Assembly (NCBI GenBank): GCA_020024635.1
Contig: JAHHTL010000002.1
Location: 19,139-83,138, forward strand
Reading direction: 5' to 3'
DNA length: 64,000 nucleotides
From: Ruminococcus sp.
Lineage (GTDB): Bacteria > Bacillota > Clostridia > Lachnospirales > Lachnospiraceae
Part shown: piece by piece, positions 50,209-60,151 of the stretch
How positions within the stretch are numbered: the first letter of the stretch is position 1
Layout of the letters: each line of letters begins with the position of its first letter
Made by a program: the position numbers and the translations under genes
Notes under the pieces: model-generated
Databases searched by the model: none
What the model was told of the DNA's origin: nothing
The model's input: only the letters and a program-made list of their open reading frames with translations

Positions 50209-50279
50209 GGCGCAGTAGCCAAGTGGTAAGGCGTGGGTCTGCAACACCCTGATCATCGGTTCAAATCCGATCTGTGCCT
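50209..50279 (+). tRNA. tRNA-Cys (anticodon GCA), copy 1
   Basis: Acceptor GGCGCAG/CTGTGCC with discriminator U73. Short 3-bp D-stem. Anticodon loop CTGCAAC. T-arm ATCGG-TTCAAAT-CCGAT. Confidence 0.9.
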
Positions 50280-50284
50280 CTAAA

Positions 50285-50468: not shown

Positions 50469-50478
50469 CATAAAGAAG

Positions 50479-50549
50479 AGGCACAGATCGGATTTGAACC
50501 GATGATCAGGGTGTTGCAGACCCACGCCTTACCACTTGGCTACTGCGCC
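50479..50549 (-). tRNA. tRNA-Cys (anticodon GCA), copy 2, inverted and identical to copy 1
   Basis: The reverse complement of 50479-50549 equals 50209-50279 at all 71 positions. Confidence 0.9.
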
Positions 50550-50610: not shown

Positions 50611-50639
50611 TTGAAAAACAAACAATGAACTCTTATAAT
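50611..50639 (+). promoter_or_regulatory. sigma-A promoter of the LRR-VWA-AAA-sortase cassette, back-to-back with the tRNA-Cys promoter
   Basis: TTGAAA (50611-50616), 17-nt spacer, TATAAT (50634-50639). Its -35 box is 1 nt from the divergent -35 box. Confidence 0.65.
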
Positions 50640-50677
50640 GAAAAAGAAATTTAAGAAAAATAGAGGTCAGTTGTCAC

Positions 50678-51637
50678 ATGACGATAGAATATAGGATCAT
50701 AGAAAATGAAATTGAGATTATTCGGTGTTACGGAGTCGACGAAAAGATAGTGATTCCAGAGAAAATAAATGGTTTTCCGGTTACCATGATTGCGCCCTAT
50801 GCGTTTTCAGACCGAAAAAGACAGGAAGAAAACGAGGTTCTTGTACAGGAAGAAGAATCAGATCGTTTGTTTCGAGATCAATTTCGTTTGTTGGCGGGGG
50901 CATATGTGAAAGAAATTGTATTTCCGGATAGCGTGAAAAGAATTGGTAATTATATCTTTTATGGATGCAAAAATTTAAAAGCGCTTTCATTTTCCAATTT
51001 GCTTACGCAGATTGGAAGTGGGGCCTTTACAGGATGTGGAAGGCTAGGTCAATTATCTGTGAATATGATTATAGGAAAACAATCTTGTGTAAAAGAAATA
51101 TTAGAAGATCTTTGGCAGAGAATGGATGTGATTTTTACATATTCCAAGGGGCAAACTGTGGTGAAAGTGGTTTTTCCAGAGCATTATGAAGAAGCAGTGG
51201 AAAACACGCCGGCCAGAATTTTGTTTACAAAGCATCATGGTTCTGGGAATGATTATCGGCAGTGCTTTTATGAAAGAACGTTGGATTATGAAAAATATGA
51301 TCGCATCTTTCCGCTTGCAGCAGCGAGAGAGAAGATAGAGGTGTTAATTGCTATTATCTTTTCTAGATTGCTGTATCCGCAACAACTCTCTGAAAAAGCA
51401 AAAGAAAAATATGTTGCTTTCGTGAAAGAGAATATTACACGGATTCTACCTGTCCTTTTAAAAGGAAATGCAATGGAGGAGATTCAGTGTATCACGCGCT
51501 ATCATGCCTGGACAGAAGAGGGAATTGACGCTGCCATAGAAATGGCTTCGACATCTCAAAAAGCAGAGATCACCGGGTACCTCATGAATCAAAAGCAGAG
51601 AGAGTTTAAGGCGAAAAAGAAAAAATATTTGTTGTAA
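50678..51637 (+). CDS. cytoplasmic leucine-rich repeat protein (BspA-type LRR_5 repeats) with helical C-terminal half
   Basis: Repeats of the IPxxVxxIGxxAFxxCxxL type: VIPEKINGFPVTMIAPYAF, VFPDSVKRIGNYIFYGCKNLKAL and LTQIGSGAFTGCGRLGQL. No signal peptide and no TM. Confidence 0.75.
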   Translation: MTIEYRIIENEIEIIRCYGVDEKIVIPEKINGFPVTMIAPYAFSDRKRQEENEVLVQEEESDRLFRDQFRLLAGAYVKEIVFPDSVKRIGNYIFYGCKNLKALSFSNLLTQIGSGAFTGCGRLGQLSVNMIIGKQSCVKEILEDLWQRMDVIFTYSKGQTVVKVVFPEHYEEAVENTPARILFTKHHGSGNDYRQCFYERTLDYEKYDRIFPLAAAREKIEVLIAIIFSRLLYPQQLSEKAKEKYVAFVKENITRILPVLLKGNAMEEIQCITRYHAWTEEGIDAAIEMASTSQKAEITGYLMNQKQREFKAKKKKYLL

Positions 51638-51661
51638 AAATCGGAAGGAGGGGAGAGAAAG

Positions 51662-53044
51662 GTGAAAAAATGGGAGGAGTTTGACGAAAAGGAAGCAATC
51701 ATTCGCTTAGATGAGCTGGGAAAACAGATTCTTTTTGCGGCGAGAGATGAATTATATATGGGCATGCGTTTTCTGGATGTTGCATTATGTAGTTTTGATT
51801 ATGCAATGGATACGACTATTTCTCCATTTGGAACAGATGGGAGAATCATCTATTTCCACCCACAGCAACTAGGGGGAATGTATCGAACAAATAGAGTGGA
51901 AGTGAATAGAGGGTATCTTCACATGGTAATGCACTGCATTTTCCGACATTTTCTAAAAGGAGATCAAACGGATTTATATTGGAATTTGAGTTGCGATATT
52001 GCAGTAGAGAGAATCATGGATGGATTTTTTCACCGTTCTGTTCGACACCCTAAAAGTCTGTTGAGAAGGGAAACCTATAGAAAATTAGAACGTGCAAAAA
52101 AAGTACTAAATGCAGAAAGAATCTATGTACTGTTAAAGCAATGGAACTTAACGGAAAAAGAATTTCATAAGATAGCCCAAGAATTTTATGTAGATGATCA
52201 TAAATATTGGATTTCGGATGATCCACAAAAAAAGCCAGATCCAAATTTGCAACAAAAATGGAAAGATCTGGAGGAAAAAATGGAAACGGATTTGGAGACG
52301 TTTTCAAAAGAGGCTGTGGAACAAACCGGAGAGTTACTTGGACAGATCAAAATAGAAAATCGAGAAAAGTACGATTATAAAAAATTTCTTAGAAAATTTG
52401 CAGTTATGCGAGAAGAAATCGGAGTAGATCCAGATTCATTTGATTATTCTTTTTATAGTTACGGACTTCGGTTATATGGAAATATGCCTTTGATTGAGCC
52501 GCAAGAAACAAAAGAAGTTAAAAAAATCGATGACTTTGTTGTGGTAATTGATACGTCTATGTCCTGTTCTAAGGAACTTACAAAGAAGTTTTTGGAAGAA
52601 ACGTATTGTGTACTCAGCGAAGAGAATAGTTTTATGAAAAAAGTGAATGTTCACATATTGCAATGCGATGAGAAGGTGCATTCGGATGTGAAAATTACTT
52701 CAAAAGAGGAATTGAAATCCTACATGGATCATCTAGAATTGTATGGACAGGGAGGGACCGATTTTCGCCCTGCATTTGCATATGTGGAGGAGCTTTTAGA
52801 ACGGGGAGAATTTCAGCAGTTAAAGGGACTGATTTATTTTACGGACGGTTATGGGACCTATCCAAAGAAAATGCCTCGCTATAAGACTGCATTTGTGTTT
52901 ATGCAAGAGGATTATCAAGACAGAGACGTTCCGCCATGGGCTGTTAAGTTGATACTGCGGGAAGATGAATGGAACATAGAAAATGGAAAGGATAGAAATT
53001 ATGGATATAAAAAGAGCGAAACAAGAGGTGAAGAATTCGATTGA
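51662..53044 (+). CDS. DUF2201-type protein: zincin-like N-domain with degenerate active site plus VWA domain
   Basis: TDGRIIYFHP...LHMVMHCIFRH...WNLSCDIAVE layout. HMxxH stands where HExxH is expected. VWA MIDAS residues VVIDTSMSCS, GGTDF and YFTDGYG. GTG start with strong RBS GGAAGGAGGGGAG. Confidence 0.75.
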   Translation: MKKWEEFDEKEAIIRLDELGKQILFAARDELYMGMRFLDVALCSFDYAMDTTISPFGTDGRIIYFHPQQLGGMYRTNRVEVNRGYLHMVMHCIFRHFLKGDQTDLYWNLSCDIAVERIMDGFFHRSVRHPKSLLRRETYRKLERAKKVLNAERIYVLLKQWNLTEKEFHKIAQEFYVDDHKYWISDDPQKKPDPNLQQKWKDLEEKMETDLETFSKEAVEQTGELLGQIKIENREKYDYKKFLRKFAVMREEIGVDPDSFDYSFYSYGLRLYGNMPLIEPQETKEVKKIDDFVVVIDTSMSCSKELTKKFLEETYCVLSEENSFMKKVNVHILQCDEKVHSDVKITSKEELKSYMDHLELYGQGGTDFRPAFAYVEELLERGEFQQLKGLIYFTDGYGTYPKKMPRYKTAFVFMQEDYQDRDVPPWAVKLILREDEWNIENGKDRNYGYKKSETRGEEFD

Positions 53045-54512
53045 AGCTTATCTTTTAAAAGATGAGTATGGGAACTATAGAATTCCAGTCATCCGACAAA
53101 GACCTGTGTTTTTGATTGGACCACCGGGAATAGGAAAGACACAGATTATGGAACAGATTGCAAAAGAATGTAAAATTGCATTGGTTTCTTATACCATTAC
53201 ACATCATACCAGACAAAGTGCAGTGGGACTTCCTTTTATAAAAGAGAAAACGTATGAGGGTAAAACTTATTCGGTGACCGAATATACAATGAGTGAAATT
53301 ATTGCATCGGTGTACGAAAAGATGGAGCAGACAGGCTTAAAAGAAGGGATTTTGTTTATCGATGAAATTAATTGTGTATCAGAGACACTTGCGCCTACGA
53401 TGTTGCAGTTTTTGCAAGGAAAAACATTTGGAAATCAGAAAGTGCCAGAAGGATGGGTAATTGTAGCCGCAGGAAATCCACCAGAATACAATAAATCTGT
53501 AAGAGAATTTGACGTAGTGACTTTGGATCGAATTAAAAAGATTGATGTAGAAAGCAATTTTGAAGTTTGGAAGGAATATGCATATAAACACGAAATACAT
53601 GCAGCTGTGATTTCCTATTTGGAATTAAGAAAAGAGAATTTTTATCGAATAGAGACAACGGTGGATGGAAAATATTTTGCCACTGCAAGAGGATGGGAAG
53701 ATCTTTCGCAGTTCATAAAAACATATGAATATTTAGGAAAAACAGTAGATCGAGAAGTAATACTTCAGTATATTCAGCACACGAAAATTGCAAAGGATTT
53801 TGCGAATTATTTGGAATTATATTACAAATATAAAAAAGACTATGCAATCGAACAGCTTTTAGACGGTCACTGGGATGTGGGAACGTTAAAGAAAATAAGA
53901 ACAGCGCAGTTTGATGAACATTTAAGTATCATCAGTCTTTTAAATGGAAAATTAGGGGAACACTTTAAAATTTGTTATGAAAATAGTAATTCTATTGAAA
54001 AACTTTATGATTATTTGTTGATTTATAAGCAAAATCACGATACACTGCATATGGAAGATATCGTAAAGAAAGCGGATTCTGATTGGAAGGAAAAAAAGAA
54101 ATCAGAACTTCTTACCCGTCAGGAAGATAAGATGTTCCGACGGACTGTGGATACGTTGGAAACCTTTTCCATGAATATGAAAGGGAAGTCCTATACGAAC
54201 CAACAAGCGTTTGATCGGGTTAAAACGCTGTTTGATGAGTTGGTAGCAGAAGAAGAAAAAGAAACGCAAAAAACAGCAGAACAATTGGAAAATGTATTCC
54301 GTTTTCTGGAAGAAGCTTTTGGAGAAAGCCAAGAAATGGTTGCCTTTATTACAGAATTAAATGCAAATTATTATAGTATGTGGTTCATTAAAGAAAATGG
54401 CAGCGATTTATATTTTAAATATAATAAAGGACTTTTATTTGATGCGCGTCAAAAGAAACTCGTACATCAAATGGAAGATATTGAAGAAATGTTGAATTTT
54501 ACGTTAAAATAA
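53001..54512 (+). CDS. MoxR-like AAA+ ATPase (AAA_5 type) with ~300-aa helical C-terminal extension
   Basis: Walker A LIGPPGIGKTQ, Walker B ILFIDEINC, sensor-1 VIVAAGNPPEY. Start at 53001 or 52983; either way it overlaps the VWA gene by 44-62 nt. Confidence 0.8.
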   Translation: MDIKRAKQEVKNSIEAYLLKDEYGNYRIPVIRQRPVFLIGPPGIGKTQIMEQIAKECKIALVSYTITHHTRQSAVGLPFIKEKTYEGKTYSVTEYTMSEIIASVYEKMEQTGLKEGILFIDEINCVSETLAPTMLQFLQGKTFGNQKVPEGWVIVAAGNPPEYNKSVREFDVVTLDRIKKIDVESNFEVWKEYAYKHEIHAAVISYLELRKENFYRIETTVDGKYFATARGWEDLSQFIKTYEYLGKTVDREVILQYIQHTKIAKDFANYLELYYKYKKDYAIEQLLDGHWDVGTLKKIRTAQFDEHLSIISLLNGKLGEHFKICYENSNSIEKLYDYLLIYKQNHDTLHMEDIVKKADSDWKEKKKSELLTRQEDKMFRRTVDTLETFSMNMKGKSYTNQQAFDRVKTLFDELVAEEEKETQKTAEQLENVFRFLEEAFGESQEMVAFITELNANYYSMWFIKENGSDLYFKYNKGLLFDARQKKLVHQMEDIEEMLNFTLK

Positions 54513-54540
54513 CAGGTGGATTATAGAAGAAGGATAGAAC

Positions 54541-55323
54541 ATGAGCAAAAAACAGAATCGAAAAAAAAAGAGAAAAAAGACTGTGGGAGAAAAGATCCTA
54601 AACGTCTTATTGTATACCGCAATTGCAGTTTTTGTTTTTTCGCTGATAAAAGTTGTGGTTATGTTGGCTCCCTATTACAGTGGAGAAAAAACGTATGACC
54701 AAGTAAAAGCGGATGCAATTATTGTGGAAGATAAGGACAAAGAAGAGAAGCCTGCATTTCAGGTGGATTTTAAAATGTTAAAAGCGGAAAATCCAGATAC
54801 CGTCGGTTGGATCCGTTTTGAAGAACCATCGGTCATTAGTTATCCGATTGTGAAGAGTTTGGATAATCAGGAATATTTGACTTTAACATTTTCCAGAACA
54901 CCAAACAAATTAGGAGCCATATTTATGGATAAAGATAATTCTTCTGATTTTTCTGATCGGAATACCATTATATATGGTCATAATATGATGGTAGGGGAGC
55001 AAATGTTTACCAGTCTTCATAACTATAACGAAGAAGAATTTTTACGCAAACATCCATACTTCTATATTTACGATTTAGAGAATAAAGAAATGAAGTTTCG
55101 TATTTTTTCTGTCGGCGAAATAAAGAGTGAAGAAGACAATTATAGGATTGATTTTCCAACAGAAGAGTCGGTAAATGAATTTTTAGAAACATGTAAATAT
55201 TCGTCTTACTATGATGTGGATGTAAAGCTAGATGCAGAGTCGAAAATTGTCACGCTGTCTACATGCACAGATTCCAATAGTGAGGAGAGTCGTTTTGTAA
55301 TACAAGGGGTGCTGGAGGAATAG
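54541..55323 (+). CDS. srtB: class B sortase
   Basis: Basic N-terminus plus a TM anchor. Catalytic His in IIYGHNM, Cys in TLSTCT and Arg in RFVIQG. 260 aa. Confidence 0.85.
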   Translation: MSKKQNRKKKRKKTVGEKILNVLLYTAIAVFVFSLIKVVVMLAPYYSGEKTYDQVKADAIIVEDKDKEEKPAFQVDFKMLKAENPDTVGWIRFEEPSVISYPIVKSLDNQEYLTLTFSRTPNKLGAIFMDKDNSSDFSDRNTIIYGHNMMVGEQMFTSLHNYNEEEFLRKHPYFYIYDLENKEMKFRIFSVGEIKSEEDNYRIDFPTEESVNEFLETCKYSSYYDVDVKLDAESKIVTLSTCTDSNSEESRFVIQGVLEE

Positions 55324-55325
55324 GT

Positions 55326-55514
55326 ATGGAGAATAAGTTTGAAGTTGGCGATGTGATTAAAATGAAAAAAGCACATCCATGTGGAAGTTATGAATGGCAG
55401 ATTTTGCGCGTAGGAGCAGATTTTCGATTAAAATGTACAGGGTGTGGACATCAAATTATGATTGCAAGGAAATTGGTGGAGAAGAATACAAAAGAAATTC
55501 GTAAAAAGGCTTGA
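55326..55514 (+). CDS. DUF951 family small protein
   Basis: 62 aa. MKKAHPCGS..W.ILRVGADFRLKCTGCGH, the Cys4-type motif typical of DUF951. This family is commonly found upstream of rpsF in Firmicutes. Confidence 0.8.
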   Translation: MENKFEVGDVIKMKKAHPCGSYEWQILRVGADFRLKCTGCGHQIMIARKLVEKNTKEIRKKA

Positions 55515-55539
55515 TATAAAAGAAAATCTATGCTATCAT
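55511..55539 (+). promoter_or_regulatory. sigma-A promoter of rpsF-ssb-rpsR
   Basis: TTGATA (55511-55516), 17-nt spacer, TATCAT (55534-55539). Confidence 0.6.
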
Positions 55540-55545
55540 ATGTAT

Positions 55546-55642
55546 TCGTGACGTACTGTGAAATTTGATGATTTCACGTAAATCAAAATTCCTTGTTCCC
55601 GTGGAAATTGGGAGCCAGAGACCATAAGGAGGTGCAAAAGAC
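55546..55642 (+). ncRNA. structured rpsF 5' leader (candidate S6:S18 autoregulatory element)
   Basis: About 97-nt leader with hairpin TGTGAAAT/ATTTCACG (55557-55578). An alternative pairing TTTGAT/ATCAAA exists. Lies upstream of the GGAGG RBS. Confidence 0.35.
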
Positions 55643-55930
55643 ATGAACAAGTACGAATTAGCTGTTGTAGTCAGTGCAAAAATCGAAGACGACGCTAGAG
55701 CAGAAGTTGTTGAAAAAGTGAAAGAATTAATCACACGTTTTGGCGGCAATGTTACTGACGTTGATGAATGGGGTAAGAGAAGATTTGCTTACGAAATTCA
55801 GAAAATGAAAGAAGGATTTTACTATTTCATCCACTTCGAATCTGATAGTACTGTTCCAGGAGAAGTGGAAAACCGTATCCGCATCATGGACAATGTACTC
55901 AGATATTTATGCGTTAAACAGGAAGCATAG
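55643..55930 (+). CDS. rpsF: 30S ribosomal protein S6
   Basis: MNKYELAVVV...WGKRRFAYEI. 95 aa. Confidence 0.95.
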   Translation: MNKYELAVVVSAKIEDDARAEVVEKVKELITRFGGNVTDVDEWGKRRFAYEIQKMKEGFYYFIHFESDSTVPGEVENRIRIMDNVLRYLCVKQEA

Positions 55931-55944
55931 AGAAAGAGGTAAAT

Positions 55945-56388
55945 ATGAATAAAGTTGTTTTAGTAGGGCGTCTTACAAGAGACCCTGAAGTGAGATATTC
56001 ACAAGGTGAGCATGCAACTGCTGTTGCCAGATATACATTAGCAGTTGATCGTAGATTCAGAAGAGACAATGAACCCACAGCAGACTTTATTCCGTGTGTA
56101 GTTTTTGGCCGTTCCGGTGAATTTGCTGAGAAGTATTTTCGTCAGGGAATGCGTGTATCTGTCTCAGGACGTATCCAGACAGGAAGCTATACAAACAAAG
56201 ATGGAATGAAAGTTTATACAACGGAAGTAGTTGTTGAAGAACAAGAATTTGCAGAAAGCAGAGCTGAAAGCGAAGCGAATAGAAATTCCTTTAGTCAGCC
56301 GGCAAGAAACTCATCTCCAAGTGTTGATGCAGGTGACGGATTCATGAATATTCCAGATGGAATCGATGAGGAGTTACCATTCACATAG
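55945..56388 (+). CDS. ssb: single-stranded DNA-binding protein
   Basis: OB-fold MNKVVLVGRLTRDPE and an acidic tail ending DEELPF(T). Confidence 0.95.
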   Translation: MNKVVLVGRLTRDPEVRYSQGEHATAVARYTLAVDRRFRRDNEPTADFIPCVVFGRSGEFAEKYFRQGMRVSVSGRIQTGSYTNKDGMKVYTTEVVVEEQEFAESRAESEANRNSFSQPARNSSPSVDAGDGFMNIPDGIDEELPFT

Positions 56389-56435
56389 GATATCGTTGTG
56401 AATCTCGCGATGATTAATATAGGAGGTAAAGCGAA

Positions 56436-56702
56436 ATGGCTTTCGAAAAAGGTAGCAGACCAGAAGGCGGCTTCAAGAGAAGAGGTCCAGCCCGTAGAAG
56501 AAAAAAAGTTTGTGTATTCTGTGGTAAAGAGAATAACGAAATCGATTATAAAGACGTAGCAAAATTAAAGAAATATATCTCTGAAAGAGGTAAAATTCTT
56601 CCTAGAAGAATCACAGGAAACTGTGCAAAACATCAGAGAGCGATCACTGTAGCAATCAAGAGAGCAAGACATATTGCTTTAATGCCATACGTTCAGGATT
56701 AA
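56436..56702 (+). CDS. rpsR: 30S ribosomal protein S18
   Basis: [10 protein letters not shown]...[24 protein letters not shown]. Confidence 0.95.
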
Positions 56703-56715
56703 TCAGTAGAGATAG

Positions 56716-56751
56716 GATGCTGTTGTAGTAAATACAATGGCATCTTTTTTT
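56716..56751 (+). terminator. rho-independent terminator after rpsR
   Basis: Stem GATGCTGTTGTA / TACAATGGCATC (two mismatches), followed by TTTTTTT. Confidence 0.75.
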
Positions 56752-56832: not shown

Positions 56833-58029
56833 ATGAATTTAGAGAAAGAAAATTTAAGAAAAATCAGAGGATTGATCCTATTTACAATTATTGTTCTTAT
56901 CACGTTATGGCAGTACAATACAGTACTACATCTGGCTGTTATGTGTATGCACATTTTATTCCCATTCATAGTGGGTGGGGCAATTGCTTTTATTTTAAAC
57001 GTTCCTATGAATTTTATAGAAAAAAAGCTGTTTAAAAACAAAGAGAAAGCGGAGGGAACGTATGCAAGAGGAATTAGTCTTCTTCTAACGATCGTATTTG
57101 TATGTAGTATCATAGCAATTGTTATTTTTGTTGTAGTTCCAAAACTGGGAACCACGCTGATTTCACTGGGAAAAAATATTCAGGTGTTTATCGTGGATGT
57201 ACAAAGATGGTTGGAGTCACTTTTTACGGATAATCCTGAAATTATCCGTGTGATAGAAGATATAGAAATCAACTGGGATAAATTAATAAACAGTATGATT
57301 ACGTTTTTCAAAAGTGGAGCAGGAAGTGTACTTGGTTCTACAGTGACAGTTGCCAAAAGTATTGTGAGTGCAGTTACTACATTTGTGATTTCATTTGTTT
57401 TTTCGTGCTATATTTTATTGCAGAAAGAACGGTTAAGTATTCAGAGCAAAAAAATATTGTACGCTTATCTCAAGGAAAATCGAGTAGAAAAGATTTTATC
57501 AATCTGCAAACTCACTTATCGAACATTTTCTAATTTTTTGACAGGACAATGTGTAGAGGCAGTTATACTGGGGACGATGTTTGTAGTTGCGATGAGTGTT
57601 TTACGGATGCCATACGCATTGTTAGTTGGTGTATTGATTGCATTTACGGCTTTGATTCCGATTTTTGGGGCATTTATTGGCTGCGTAATTGGTACATTTT
57701 TGATTCTTGTGGAATCTCCGATAAAAGCCTTGATTTTTCTTATTTTATTCCTTGTTCTGCAACAGGTTGAAGGAAATTTTATTTATCCAAAAGTTGTTGG
57801 AAATTCAGTGGGACTTCCATCTATATGGGTTCTTGCGGCAGTGAGTATTGGTGGAAGCTTAATGGGAGTTGTTGGAATGCTTATTTTTATTCCGATGATT
57901 TCGGTACTCTACACACTTTTACGAGGAAATGTGTATCAAAGATTGGAGGAAAAAGGAGTTTATGTAGATACTTCTTCTGGAAAACTCCTTCCAATTTCAG
58001 AGGAAAAGGAAAATGCTTCGGAAAAGTAA
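56833..58029 (+). CDS. AI-2E family transporter (PerM/YhhT-like)
   Basis: 398 aa with about 8 TM helices. Conserved LVLQQVEGNFIYPKVVG motif. Confidence 0.85.
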   Translation: MNLEKENLRKIRGLILFTIIVLITLWQYNTVLHLAVMCMHILFPFIVGGAIAFILNVPMNFIEKKLFKNKEKAEGTYARGISLLLTIVFVCSIIAIVIFVVVPKLGTTLISLGKNIQVFIVDVQRWLESLFTDNPEIIRVIEDIEINWDKLINSMITFFKSGAGSVLGSTVTVAKSIVSAVTTFVISFVFSCYILLQKERLSIQSKKILYAYLKENRVEKILSICKLTYRTFSNFLTGQCVEAVILGTMFVVAMSVLRMPYALLVGVLIAFTALIPIFGAFIGCVIGTFLILVESPIKALIFLILFLVLQQVEGNFIYPKVVGNSVGLPSIWVLAAVSIGGSLMGVVGMLIFIPMISVLYTLLRGNVYQRLEEKGVYVDTSSGKLLPISEEKENASEK

Positions 58030-58105
58030 AAGTGGAATAATTATGGAAAAAGTGATATACTAGATGCGTTAACGAATGAAAGTGAGTATATGAGGAAATA
58101 AGTTC

Positions 58106-60151
58106 ATGAAAAAGAAAAATATGCGTTTAAAGGGTCAGCTGCGCCTCTATATGCAGTGGCCGCTCATAATGATGGTTTTTCTGTGGGCAATGGATATATG
58201 GATGTATCAGCTAGATAGAAAGGCTGGAGTAATAATGTCCGTATTCATTGTGATATATATGATCGTTGCAGGAACATTGTATTTTTACAATCGTTCTTTG
58301 ATTCTTGCGGATCTTATTCAATTTTCCACGCAATATCAGGGCATTCAAAATACCCTACTGAAAGAACTGTCCCTTCCGTATGCAATTCTCCAAGAGAACG
58401 GACATATTTTGTGGGGAAATGACAGTTTTAAATCGATTATTTTTAATTCCAAAAGGGAGAAGGATATCAATAAGATTATTCCGGATCTAGATGTGAGAGC
58501 GTTTTCAAGCAAGAATACAGATCGCTTGGAAGTAGAGGTTACCTTTAAAGACAGAGAATATCAGGTGGAGCTTCAAAAAATATCTGTAGAAGGATTTAGT
58601 GAAGAGGAACGGATTCTTCAAATTCCACCAGAAGCAGAATATTTTATTGCTCTTTACATGCGTGACATAACAGAATTAAAATCTTATATCAAGAAAAATG
58701 AAGCACAAAGGATGCTTGCCGGTCTTATTTACATTGACAATTATGAAGAAGTTATGGAGAGTGTGGAAGAAGTTCGACAGTCTCTTCTTGTAGCTTTGAT
58801 TGATCGGAAGATAAACAAGTATATTGGAGATGTAGACGGACTTGTAAAAAAGTTGGAAAAAGATAAATATTTCTTTGTGATGAAAGTAGAAGGGTACCGC
58901 AAACTGGAACAAGACAAGTTTACGATTCTTGAAGAAGTAAAGCATGTAAACATTGGAAATGCACGTTCAGCTACATTAAGTATTGGAGTTGGATTAAATG
59001 CGCCTACCTATGCACAGAGTTATAATAATGCACGTGTTGCCATCGATTTGGCTCTTGCAAGAGGGGGAGATCAGGCGGTTGTAAAAAACTTAACAGGAAT
59101 TACGTATTTTGGTGGGAAGAAAGAGCAGACAGCAAAGAATACCCGTGTAAAAGCGCGTGTCAAAGCAGAGGCATTGCGGGAGTTTATCATGGGAAAAGAT
59201 CAAGTGATCGTTATGGGACATAAGATTGCAGATGCCGACTGTTTTGGAGCATGTATGGGGATTTATCGTGCTACGGTTTCCCTTGGAAAAAAAGCACACA
59301 TTGTAATCAATGAAGTTACCAGTTCCATTCGTCCTTTGTACGATGAAATTGCGCACAGCAGTTCCTATGAAAAAGATTTATTTCTTACACCAGAAGAAGC
59401 ATTGTCTTATGTATCAGACAATACCATGGTCATTGTAGTAGATACCAATAAGCCACAGCTTACAGAGTGCCCAGAGTTGCTGAAGAAATCAAAAACCATT
59501 GCGGTTTTGGATCATCACAGACAGGGAAGTAATGTAATTGAAAATGCAGTTCTTTCTTATGTAGAGCCATATTCATCCTCTGCAAGTGAAATGATTGCAG
59601 AAGTATTGCAGTATATTGTAGATGATATTAAATGTCCTTCCGTGGAGGCGGATTGTCTATACGCAGGGATTATGATCGATACGCGTAATTTTATGAACCG
59701 TACAGGGGTGCGAACCTTTGAGGCGGCGGCTTATCTTAGAAGATGTGGGGCAGATATTACGCGAGTGCGTAAAATGTTCCGAGATGATATGGATTCCTAT
59801 CGCGCAAAGGCAGAAGCGGTTCGCCGTGCACAAGTATATCGGGAAGAATATGCGATTGCACAGTGCCCCAATAATATAGATAGTCCAACTGTGCTTGCGG
59901 CACAAGCGGCCAATGAACTTTTGGATATTGGAGGAATTAAGGCATCTTTTGTGTTTACCGTATACGAAGGAAGGACGTTTTTAAGTTGTCGATCCATTGA
60001 TGAAGTCAATGTTCAGATTATTGCAGAAAAGTTAGGCGGCGGTGGACATATTAATGCAGCAGGAGCCCAATTCGAAGGGACAGATGTAGAATCGGCCATG
60101 GGACTATTAAAAGCAACCATTGATCTTATGATAGAAGAAGGAGATATATAG
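58106..60151 (+). CDS. gdpP: GdpP/YybT-type DHH-DHHA1 phosphodiesterase (cyclic-di-AMP phosphodiesterase)
   Basis: Two N-terminal TM helices, a PAS-like region and a degenerate GGDEF region. DHH motifs MGHKIADADCFG, VVDTN and LDHH. DHHA1 motif GGGGHINAAG. Conserved position upstream of rplI-dnaB. Confidence 0.85.
   Translation: MKKKNMRLKGQLRLYMQWPLIMMVFLWAMDIWMYQLDRKAGVIMSVFIVIYMIVAGTLYFYNRSLILADLIQFSTQYQGIQNTLLKELSLPYAILQENGHILWGNDSFKSIIFNSKREKDINKIIPDLDVRAFSSKNTDRLEVEVTFKDREYQVELQKISVEGFSEEERILQIPPEAEYFIALYMRDITELKSYIKKNEAQRMLAGLIYIDNYEEVMESVEEVRQSLLVALIDRKINKYIGDVDGLVKKLEKDKYFFVMKVEGYRKLEQDKFTILEEVKHVNIGNARSATLSIGVGLNAPTYAQSYNNARVAIDLALARGGDQAVVKNLTGITYFGGKKEQTAKNTRVKARVKAEALREFIMGKDQVIVMGHKIADADCFGACMGIYRATVSLGKKAHIVINEVTSSIRPLYDEIAHSSSYEKDLFLTPEEALSYVSDNTMVIVVDTNKPQLTECPELLKKSKTIAVLDHHRQGSNVIENAVLSYVEPYSSSASEMIAEVLQYIVDDIKCPSVEADCLYAGIMIDTRNFMNRTGVRTFEAAAYLRRCGADITRVRKMFRDDMDSYRAKAEAVRRAQVYREEYAIAQCPNNIDSPTVLAAQAANELLDIGGIKASFVFTVYEGRTFLSCRSIDEVNVQIIAEKLGGGGHINAAGAQFEGTDVESAMGLLKATIDLMIEEGDI

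Follow-up and report, generated by a model that had tools for sequence, protein, structure and literature searches.

Which of the genes that follow a single promoter belong together, and what might they do? The question is raised by positions 50611-55514 of a 64,000-nucleotide stretch of Ruminococcus sp. DNA (GCA_020024635.1, contig JAHHTL010000002.1, positions 19,139 to 83,138 of the forward strand; the whole stretch is called the window here). Five genes lie one behind the other on the + strand, encoding a leucine-rich repeat (LRR) protein, a von Willebrand factor A (VWA) protein of the DUF2201 type, an AAA+ ATPase, the class B sortase SrtB and a small DUF951 protein. A first-pass annotation had read them as one cassette next to a tRNA cluster, and had suggested that the LRR protein is plausibly the third partner of an AAA+/VWA pair that could mature or license a surface protein, naming the proposed vWA-MoxR ternary signalling or conflict systems as background. 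By comparative synteny, the functional unit is instead three genes, LRR, VWA and AAA (the triad, 50678-54512), and we regard it as probable, if only somewhat so, that they form a self-contained, cytoplasmic and vertically inherited module, in which a chaperone-like AAA+/VWA pair works with a dedicated LRR/helical partner. We judge the MoxR-type AAA+/VWA pair to be of a known kind and its dedicated LRR/helical partner to be what is new here.

Three genes are inherited together

With one genome taken for each GTDB species, a pattern scan for relatives of the VWA gene returned at least 578, of which 80 loci were kept, with flanks of up to 10 kb, and searched by tblastn with the window's eight proteins. 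Where the flank left room for it, the LRR gene was present in 75 of 78 loci and the AAA gene in 74 of 77, and the three genes lay tightly and in the same order, LRR-VWA-AAA with gaps below 400 nucleotides, in 66 of the 80 species loci. These loci are mostly from Lachnospiraceae, together with Caproiciproducens and Caproicibacter, and the triad occurs in Mediterraneibacter, Blautia, Dorea, Coprococcus, Anaerostipes, Faecalicatena, Robinsoniella, Marvinbryantia, Hungatella, Schaedlerella and Caproiciproducens, and also in Caproicibacter. In three out of three reverse look-ups that started from LRR homologues, DUF2201 and AAA genes lay 3' of the homologue. When the flanking open reading frames (ORFs) were clustered all against all, no other family was found in more than 22 loci, so there is no conserved fourth gene. 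The synteny in relatives that the first-pass annotation had anticipated is therefore real for LRR-VWA-AAA and does not extend to srtB, which is found near the triad in 15 of 64 loci (see below).

The LRR protein is the most variable of the three, with a median identity to the window of 38%, compared with 56% for VWA and 62% for AAA; across the 80 species, VWA and AAA are each 51-71% identical. By taxon, identity to the window is 61-69% in Mediterraneibacter, 51-66% in Blautia, ~58% in Dorea/Coprococcus and 54% in Caproiciproducens, and the architecture of this canonical-order clade is uniform. Because identity declines gradually from genus to genus, the triad appears to have been inherited vertically.

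A Lachnospiraceae-type triad was also met under two other labels, a Bacteroides thetaiotaomicron metagenome-assembled genome (MAG; locus L077) and Holdemanella biformis (L030), where VWA is 53-61% identical; contaminated bins are a more likely source than real occurrence in those taxa.

A divergent clade keeps the partner in a different order

A HMMER scan of 1.84 billion representatives with the VWA protein gave 870 clusters (50% identity) at E ≤ 1e-30 and 2199 at E ≤ 1e-10. An alignment of the most divergent VWA representatives, 36-40% identical to the query, was then used to scan metagenome contigs, and profile searches were run on the 80 metagenome loci returned. Two arrangements are seen among these, the canonical LRR-VWA-AAA and a second clade with VWA-AAA-LRR, the latter again having no conserved fourth gene. 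The second-clade partner is usually ~300 residues long; some loci encode a giant LRR_5 protein of 981-1290 residues (L115, L128 and L159), and L121 has multiple LRR paralogues. A hidden Markov model (HMM) of the helical module (query residues 205-319), built from genome-scan orthologues with canonical order or close variants, detects second-clade partners with 18-63 bits, the match in the small ones lying in or close to their C-terminal part. In an alignment of both clades, the N-terminal LRR domain, the helical half and an aromatic/hydrophobic-any-Leu motif near the C-terminus are held in common. Since linkage to the partner is kept despite the altered gene order, it provides good comparative evidence of a functional ternary relationship, and with the counts given above and the reverse look-ups it bears out the early suggestion that the LRR protein is the third partner.

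We also note that in L115 (1780-4725) the 981-residue partner is encoded between the VWA and AAA genes, and that it contains three LRR_5 blocks and DUF4132 (81 bits).

A cytoplasmic LRR protein with a conserved flexible loop

The LRR protein (gene 1, 50678-51637, + strand, 319 residues) matches Pfam LRR_5 with 46.1 bits against a cut-off of 27.7. Its AlphaFold2 (AF2) model has a predicted local distance difference test score (pLDDT) of 89.6 and a predicted template modelling score (pTM) of 0.86, and predicts an N-terminal BspA-type LRR half followed by an eight-helix C-terminal half. In Foldseek searches the LRR half matched only LRRs of the BspA/TpLRR type, among them TpLRR 6mlx (E 1e-4) and 4oju (root mean square deviation (rmsd) 1.6 over 134 columns); the helical half gave no significant match, only TPR-like ones at E >0.6. 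Typical BspA-type LRR_5 proteins are surface proteins, whereas that of the window lacks a signal peptide, and there is no transmembrane (TM) segment or signal peptide-like hydrophobic stretch in the LRR, VWA or AAA protein. Judged from their sequences, all three are cytoplasmic. The description of gene 1 at first pass, BspA-type repeats with neither signal peptide nor TM segment, agrees with all of this.

Between the two halves of the chain runs a loop, residues 168-197, that is invariant. Its longest invariant run, FPEHYEEAVENTPARILFTQHHGSGNNYRQCF, contains residues 172-186, the sole segment of the model with pLDDT <50, and the invariant residues 171-187 coincide with it; H169, E171, E172, E175, H186, H187 and C196 are all invariant. 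The C-terminus is a basic tail with a terminal Leu. Conserved, acidic and, according to the model, exposed and flexible, the loop is a candidate for something resembling a binding epitope.

A zincin motif without its glutamate beside an intact MIDAS

Gene 2 (51662-53044, + strand) has a GTG start behind a GGAGG ribosome-binding site and encodes 460 residues. DUF2201_N covers residues 27-159 (28.8 bits, cut-off 23.2) and DUF2201 residues 293-429 (44.4 bits, cut-off 26.4), in the N-to-C order of the family; the only Pfam matches are DUF2201, VWA_2 and VWA, with nothing NorD-, CbbO- or BchD-like beyond generic VWA. The zincin motif reads HMVMHCIFRH (H87-M88-V-M-H91-x4-H96), the catalytic Glu of HExxH being replaced by Met, and the metal ion-dependent adhesion site (MIDAS) is complete (D297, S299, S301, T366 and D395, in DTSMS, GGTD and FTDG). 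The protein has no C-terminal extension or effector domain, and searches of solved-structure sequences with it, as a single sequence or as a profile, returned nothing at E <0.03.

In 23 orthologues H87, H91, H96 and the MIDAS residues are invariant and M88 nearly so. A wider census of the query and 150 representatives at 50% clustering (n=151) gave H87 in 145, H91 in 147 and H96 in 141 of the 151, D112 in 147 and E116 in 137, and each MIDAS residue in 151/151, which upholds the DUF2201 layout, dead zincin and intact MIDAS described at first pass. At position 88 the six commonest residues are M, L, S, T, V and I (127/151), and Glu is not among these. In a 24% identical homologue, Bacillus phage G gp576, the motif is HEVLHPALGH, with the same His spacing and with Glu kept. 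Together, the absence of Glu from these commonest residues and the HEVLH of gp576 point to an ancient pseudo-zincin subfamily in which the metal ligands are kept.

An AAA_5-type ATPase with intact motifs

Gene 3 (53001-54512, + strand) encodes the AAA+ ATPase. The ORF opens at 52983; its start is taken as 53001 because orthologues are mostly 503 residues long, the length obtained with this start, and align over 98-100% of the query, and the VWA/AAA overlap is thus 44 nucleotides. Pfam matches are AAA (39.9 bits) and AAA_5 (34.9 bits, cut-off 22, profile positions 1-138 of 139), and the motifs GPPGIGKT, LFIDEINC and AAGNP are present. Orthologues are 67-89% identical to the query; Walker A G43-K46-T47, Walker B D121-E122, sensor-1 N159 and R177 (LDR) are invariant, and the early assignment as an AAA_5-type ATPase with intact motifs stands. 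A helical C-terminal region of ~300 residues has no Pfam match. We call the protein MoxR-type on the basis of its AAA_5 match, its VWA partner and its motif pattern, NP-x-E...LDR, which we take to be closer to MoxR than to classical AAA.

A proposed mechanism and how it compares with other explanations

By analogy with its family, the AAA_5/MoxR-type ATPase would form a hexameric ring motor, and the DUF2201 protein would serve as its VWA co-factor, the MIDAS capturing an extended peptide by one of its acidic residues. As for the zincin-derived domain, it is most likely a metal-stabilised peptide-binding clamp and not a protease. The LRR/helical protein would then be a dedicated third subunit that docks to VWA/AAA through its helical module and its basic, Leu-ending tail, with the acidic flexible loop (residues 168-197) as the best candidate for a ligand that either the MIDAS or the zincin groove of the clamp would take up. 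A conserved cytoplasmic client could bind to the LRR face, or the LRR protein could itself be switched between states, and ATP hydrolysis would remodel or release the bound protein, as in other MoxR-VWA chaperone pairs.

Several observations weigh against this reading or parts of it. Other genes lie between VWA and AAA in L012, L013, L015, L016 and L017; the junction tolerates insertions, and strict co-transcription is therefore not required. The ten long VWA representatives have only a longer linker and no LRR, so that there is no LRR-VWA fusion among them. In the divergent clade, partner sizes vary widely (295 to 1290 residues), which would fit a sensor role as well, and there is a CGEEDY motif there, the invariant loop being limited to the canonical-order clade; the loop may thus not be a universal docking element. 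Nothing in the data points to a client of the triad.

The nature of the ATPase belongs on the same side, as sequence and structure searches do not firmly place it in one clade of AAA+ proteins. The bpMoxR profile scores 25.1 bits, under its 27-bit cut-off, and sequences in the Protein Data Bank (PDB), searched with phmmer and hmmsearch, match only at Walker A (VCP, AFG2 and midasin), with no RavA, CbbQ or NorQ chain among the matches listed. The AF2 model, made with 28 close orthologues, is poor (pLDDT 62.7), and with it Foldseek retrieves generic AAA+ proteins at rmsd mostly >10 Å. A beta-hairpin insert in helix 2 is the feature that defines the MoxR clade (PMC7159879). In the model, strand 2 (60-65) is separated from the Walker B strand (116-123) by a hairpin (strands 81-85 and 88-92), in a region with pLDDT <50 and a sequence that is invariant among orthologues; the hairpin is present only in this low-confidence model.

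If the triad were a chaperone for metal-cofactor insertion or enzyme activation, the pair would operate in the manner of NorQ-NorD, CoxD-CoxE, CbbQ-CbbO or the chelatases BchI-BchD-BchH and CobS-CobT-CobN, the LRR protein would be its client or carrier and the loop would bind metal. Characterised MoxR/VWA pairs mostly mature metalloenzymes, with the client often encoded adjacently, yet no metalloenzyme gene is conserved beside the triad in either clade. The invariant His, Glu and Cys residues of the loop (H169, E171, E172, E175, H186, H187 and C196) fit metal binding, as does the metal site of three His that is retained in the VWA protein though catalytic capacity is lost; the His/Cys-rich loop, however, is not kept in the divergent clade, LRR folds are not known as cofactor carriers, and apart from the generic VWA domain that Pfam reports along with DUF2201 and VWA_2, no sequence likeness of the VWA protein to NorD, CbbO or BchD was detected. 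The strong conservation and apparent vertical descent of the triad would suit a metabolic housekeeping role of this sort, which we nevertheless think unlikely.

A conflict or immunity system of the Kaur MoxR-vWA ternary type, in which the LRR protein senses an invader and the AAA+/VWA pair sets the threshold of the response, is quite improbable. For a layout of three components around MoxR and vWA there is an established precedent, but the gene order of the triad differs from VMAP-MoxR-vWA, there is no effector domain in the triad, and its only enzyme-like domain is catalytically dead. LRR domains are sensors in other immune systems, and the range of partner sizes in the divergent clade (295 to 1290 residues) and the multiple LRR paralogues of L121 could be read in that light; in the 80 species loci, by contrast, the architecture is uniform, identity declines gradually from genus to genus, and VWA and AAA, 51-71% identical across genera, show the opposite of the rapid divergence of conflict systems. 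Distant DUF2201 homologues do occur in phages and conjugative plasmids, whereas the triad is flanked by ordinary housekeeping genes that differ between genera. In PADLOC-DB 2.0 the LRR and VWA proteins have no match at all, and the AAA protein has only weak, sub-threshold matches in the P-loop region (IetA, 23.9 bits). With variable effectors, rapid turnover and patchy distribution all absent, the conflict-system idea is not supported, and the reading of the triad as a cytoplasmic chaperone-like pair with a dedicated LRR/helical partner is the one we retain.

Promoter, junctions and neighbouring genes

A sigma-70-type promoter, TTGAAA-17-TATAAT (50611-50639, + strand), matches at 11 of 12 positions and lies 38 nucleotides 5' of the LRR start codon. 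Comparable sites are found 35-46 nucleotides upstream in L004, L007, L042 and L071, and a promoter score of at least 10/12 is reached in 7 of 70 upstream regions (the window's included), against ~2.5 expected from shuffles. From gene 1 to gene 5 the junctions are a 24-nucleotide gap, the 44-nucleotide overlap, a 28-nucleotide gap and a 2-nucleotide gap, and there is a purine-rich ribosome-binding site at every gene start. ORF calls, Pfam/NCBIfam matches and the promoter scan thus agree with everything that had been said at first pass of the five + strand genes, their domains, junctions, promoter and motifs; it is their grouping that changes.

Genes 4 and 5, both on the + strand, are neighbours outside the module. 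SrtB (54541-55323) is a class B sortase, as annotated, by TIGR03064 of NCBIfam (182.8 bits, cut-off 153.75) and also by Pfam Sortase, with an N-terminal anchor formed by a TM segment at residues 22-40. Among the ORFs of 80 residues or more across the 64 kb, none gave a C-terminal sorting-signal candidate, again as first reported. The small protein encoded at 55326-55514 matches Pfam DUF951 with 102 bits. A SrtB orthologue is near the triad in 15 of the 64 loci with at least 5 kb downstream, all of them Mediterraneibacter-like close relatives, and is absent from the flanks in the other 49, which include Blautia, Dorea, Coprococcus, Anaerostipes, Faecalicatena and Caproiciproducens. Wherever both are detected, DUF951 is directly 3' of SrtB, and it is directly 5' of rpsF wherever rpsF is present. 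In SrtB-linked loci a LUD_dom gene usually stands between AAA and SrtB, the window and its ~85%-identical relatives being without it, and in L010 the SrtB-DUF951-rpsF block is 7 kb from the triad. SrtB and DUF951 are therefore lineage-specific neighbours and not parts of the module: SrtB is restricted to close relatives and travels with DUF951 and rpsF, and DUF951, once counted as a member of the cassette, goes with these two and not with the triad.

The scan for promoters and terminators found no + strand terminator within the five genes, so the statement that there is no internal terminator holds as far as it goes. The first + strand intrinsic terminator, at 56714-56746, comes after rpsF-ssb-rpsR (55643-56746 with the terminator, + strand), and the terminator-free run thus comprises eight genes; since it extends through rpsF-ssb-rpsR, the lack of a terminator cannot be used to mark off a cassette of five genes. 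A promoter-like site for rpsF (TTGATA-17-TATCAT with TG, 55511-55539) overlaps the end of DUF951.

A five-gene operon in which the triad matures or licenses a surface protein anchored by sortase B has a very small chance of being correct: srtB does follow AAA closely in the window (28 nucleotides) and its close relatives, with no intervening terminator, and in Mediterraneibacter-like genomes SrtB lies no more than a few kb from the triad, but it is missing from the flanks of 49 of 64 species loci, keeps company with DUF951 and rpsF where present (7 kb off in L010), is usually split from AAA by a LUD_dom gene, and shares its terminator-free stretch with rpsF-ssb-rpsR too, while the triad proteins are, by prediction, cytoplasmic and no sorting-signal substrate was found in the window. 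The sortase adjacency is best seen as an accident of local synteny beside rpsF-ssb-rpsR, and a misleading lead is thereby removed.

Other features of the locus are recorded here for completeness. In the loci with genes between VWA and AAA, the insertions lie at 9800-13100 in L012, from 11290 onward in L013 and L015 and at 11300-15150 in L016; the hosts are relatives of Blautia schinkii and one Schaedlerella MAG. The inserted genes are unrelated to the triad; judged by eye, they are glycoside-hydrolase-like, sugar-ABC-transporter-like or encode membrane proteins. The order in L017 is LRR-AAA-...-VWA.

Apart from its promoter-like site, the rpsF leader (128 nucleotides, in the 55511-55642 region) contains a hairpin, gtgaaatttgatgatttcac, and may be an autoregulatory S6:S18 leader; Rfam has no family that matches it, and the Rfam search found only five tRNAs, with no riboswitch or leader. 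In the close relative L168, the genes 3' of rpsR encode an AI-2E-family transporter, a GdpP-type DHH phosphodiesterase, rplI and dnaB. Window ORFs 56833-58029 and 58106-60151 (region 56833-60151) are size-matched to the first two of these positions, which places the window's triad in a conserved rpsF...dnaB chromosomal block.

On the other side of the LRR promoter, tRNA-Cys(GCA) occurs twice, at 50209-50281 (+ strand) and 50477-50549 (- strand), as a perfect 73-nucleotide inverted repeat with 195 nucleotides between the arms, an arrangement in which the spacer could become inverted. The copy on the minus strand is served by a TG-extended promoter of its own (11/12, 50609 to 50581), back-to-back with that of the LRR gene, and by a separate terminator (50469 to 50439). 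The adjacency to a tRNA cluster, which had been part of the first description of the cassette, is specific to this window.

Significance and comparison with known systems

ATPases of the MoxR type occur widely together with VWA partners, but a client is known for few of them. At least 578 species-level genomes contain the triad, many of them of abundant human-gut Lachnospiraceae (Blautia, Dorea, Coprococcus, Anaerostipes and Mediterraneibacter), and the conservation of its ATPase and VWA subunits is roughly on a par with that of core enzymes. Compact, with a fixed partner and a clear pseudo-enzyme signature (ligands kept, Glu lost), it is a tractable entry point that could help to show how VWA/MIDAS proteins select substrates and what a dead zincin contributes. 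In the literature on DUF2201, COG3864 and MoxR plus vWA with LRR or Clostridia, we found no description of the triad.

Midasin/Rea1 is an AAA_5-type motor whose MIDAS grips an acidic residue on a partner (Ytm1, Rsa4), which ATP hydrolysis then removes. Although it is the top solved-structure profile match of the triad's AAA protein, the match is confined to the P-loop; midasin, a eukaryotic protein, is one giant chain that carries six AAA modules, and its likeness to the triad is an analogy of mechanism and not a matter of membership. In RavA-ViaA, CbbQ-CbbO, NorQ-NorD, CoxD-CoxE, BchI-BchD-BchH and CobS-CobT-CobN, an ATPase works on a third protein together with a VWA/MIDAS co-factor, and Mg-chelatase, like the triad, has three subunits. 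There is, however, no detectable orthology between the triad and these characterised pairs and chelatases, structure matches being limited to the P-loop, and the triad differs from the pairs in having no metalloenzyme client nearby, a pseudo-zincin in its VWA subunit and a ~300-residue helical tail on its ATPase.

The uncharacterised yehI-yehK-yehL-yehM-yehP-yehQ cluster of E. coli has a MoxR protein, YehL, and a VWA protein, YehP, beside a large helical partner, YehI, and DUF4132 is common to YehI and the L115 partner. Orthology with this cluster was rejected, as hhalign aligned AAA with YehL and VWA with YehP only over the P-loop and the generic VWA core, respectively. The link through DUF4132 is kept as a lead: one of 39 scanned partner proteins (that of L115) matches, the other match being YehI itself. 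The window's LRR protein gives no match to DUF4132, and YehI is not among the proteins picked up by the helical-module HMM.

For a metallopeptidase-vWA protein paired with MoxR in jumbo phages, a role in the processing of virion proteins has been put forward (Iyer et al., 2021; PMC7824862). Like the triad's VWA protein, the phage and plasmid copies have DUF2201_N followed by DUF2201/VWA and are paired with an AAA_5-type ATPase, but the identity between them is only 20-25%, and phage G gp576 keeps HEVLHPALGH where the triad subfamily does not have Glu among its commonest residues at the catalytic position. The triad is also, unlike the phage pairs, chromosomal and provided with an LRR partner. 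Phage and plasmid collections yielded only remote DUF2201 homologues, besides short faecal contigs labelled 'Bacteriophage sp.' (MT839739.1, MT837836.1, MT837937.1 and others; hits H1-H7, H12 and H15). The latter are unannotated, 4-15 kb long and from human faeces, with VWA 35-65% identical, and are probably bacterial fragments in virome data. A conjugative plasmid of Cupriavidus taiwanensis (L086, 1918-5140) encodes a distant DUF2201 protein (DUF2201_N, 162 bits), with genes for a 341-residue AAA_5-like ATPase and a 305-residue protein that has no Pfam match 5' of it, which makes another three-gene layout.

The closest parallel in plan is with the ternary systems of Kaur et al. (2020; PMC7159879), who proposed that MoxR-type ATPases pair with VWA co-chaperones in which the MIDAS binds an extended peptide, and who described four MoxR-vWA ternary classes, VMAP, iSTAND, FtsH and beta-propeller. 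As in those systems, an ATPase of the AAA_5/MoxR kind is encoded and co-inherited with a MIDAS-bearing VWA protein and a third conserved protein, and the third component consists of a docking-type module and a more variable part and evolves faster than the ATPase. The published classes have no LRR partner and no zincin-VWA fusion, and all have variable effectors (PMC7159879); in the triad, by contrast, a protein of LRR_5 plus helical make-up stands as third component, the order is LRR-VWA-AAA or VWA-AAA-LRR instead of VMAP-MoxR-vWA, and the VWA protein has an N-terminal dead zincin and no C-terminal effector. The triad further differs in that its main clade is undiversified, highly conserved and apparently vertical in descent, in unicellular gut Clostridia, and in that bpMoxR stays below its cut-off and LRR and VWA have no PADLOC match. 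Taken as a whole, the comparison allows the tentative suggestion, to which we attach rather less than an even chance, that the triad is a fifth MoxR-vWA ternary class, a housekeeping device of gut Clostridia with a dead-zincin clamp, an acidic loop as its ligand and an LRR face that recruits the client.

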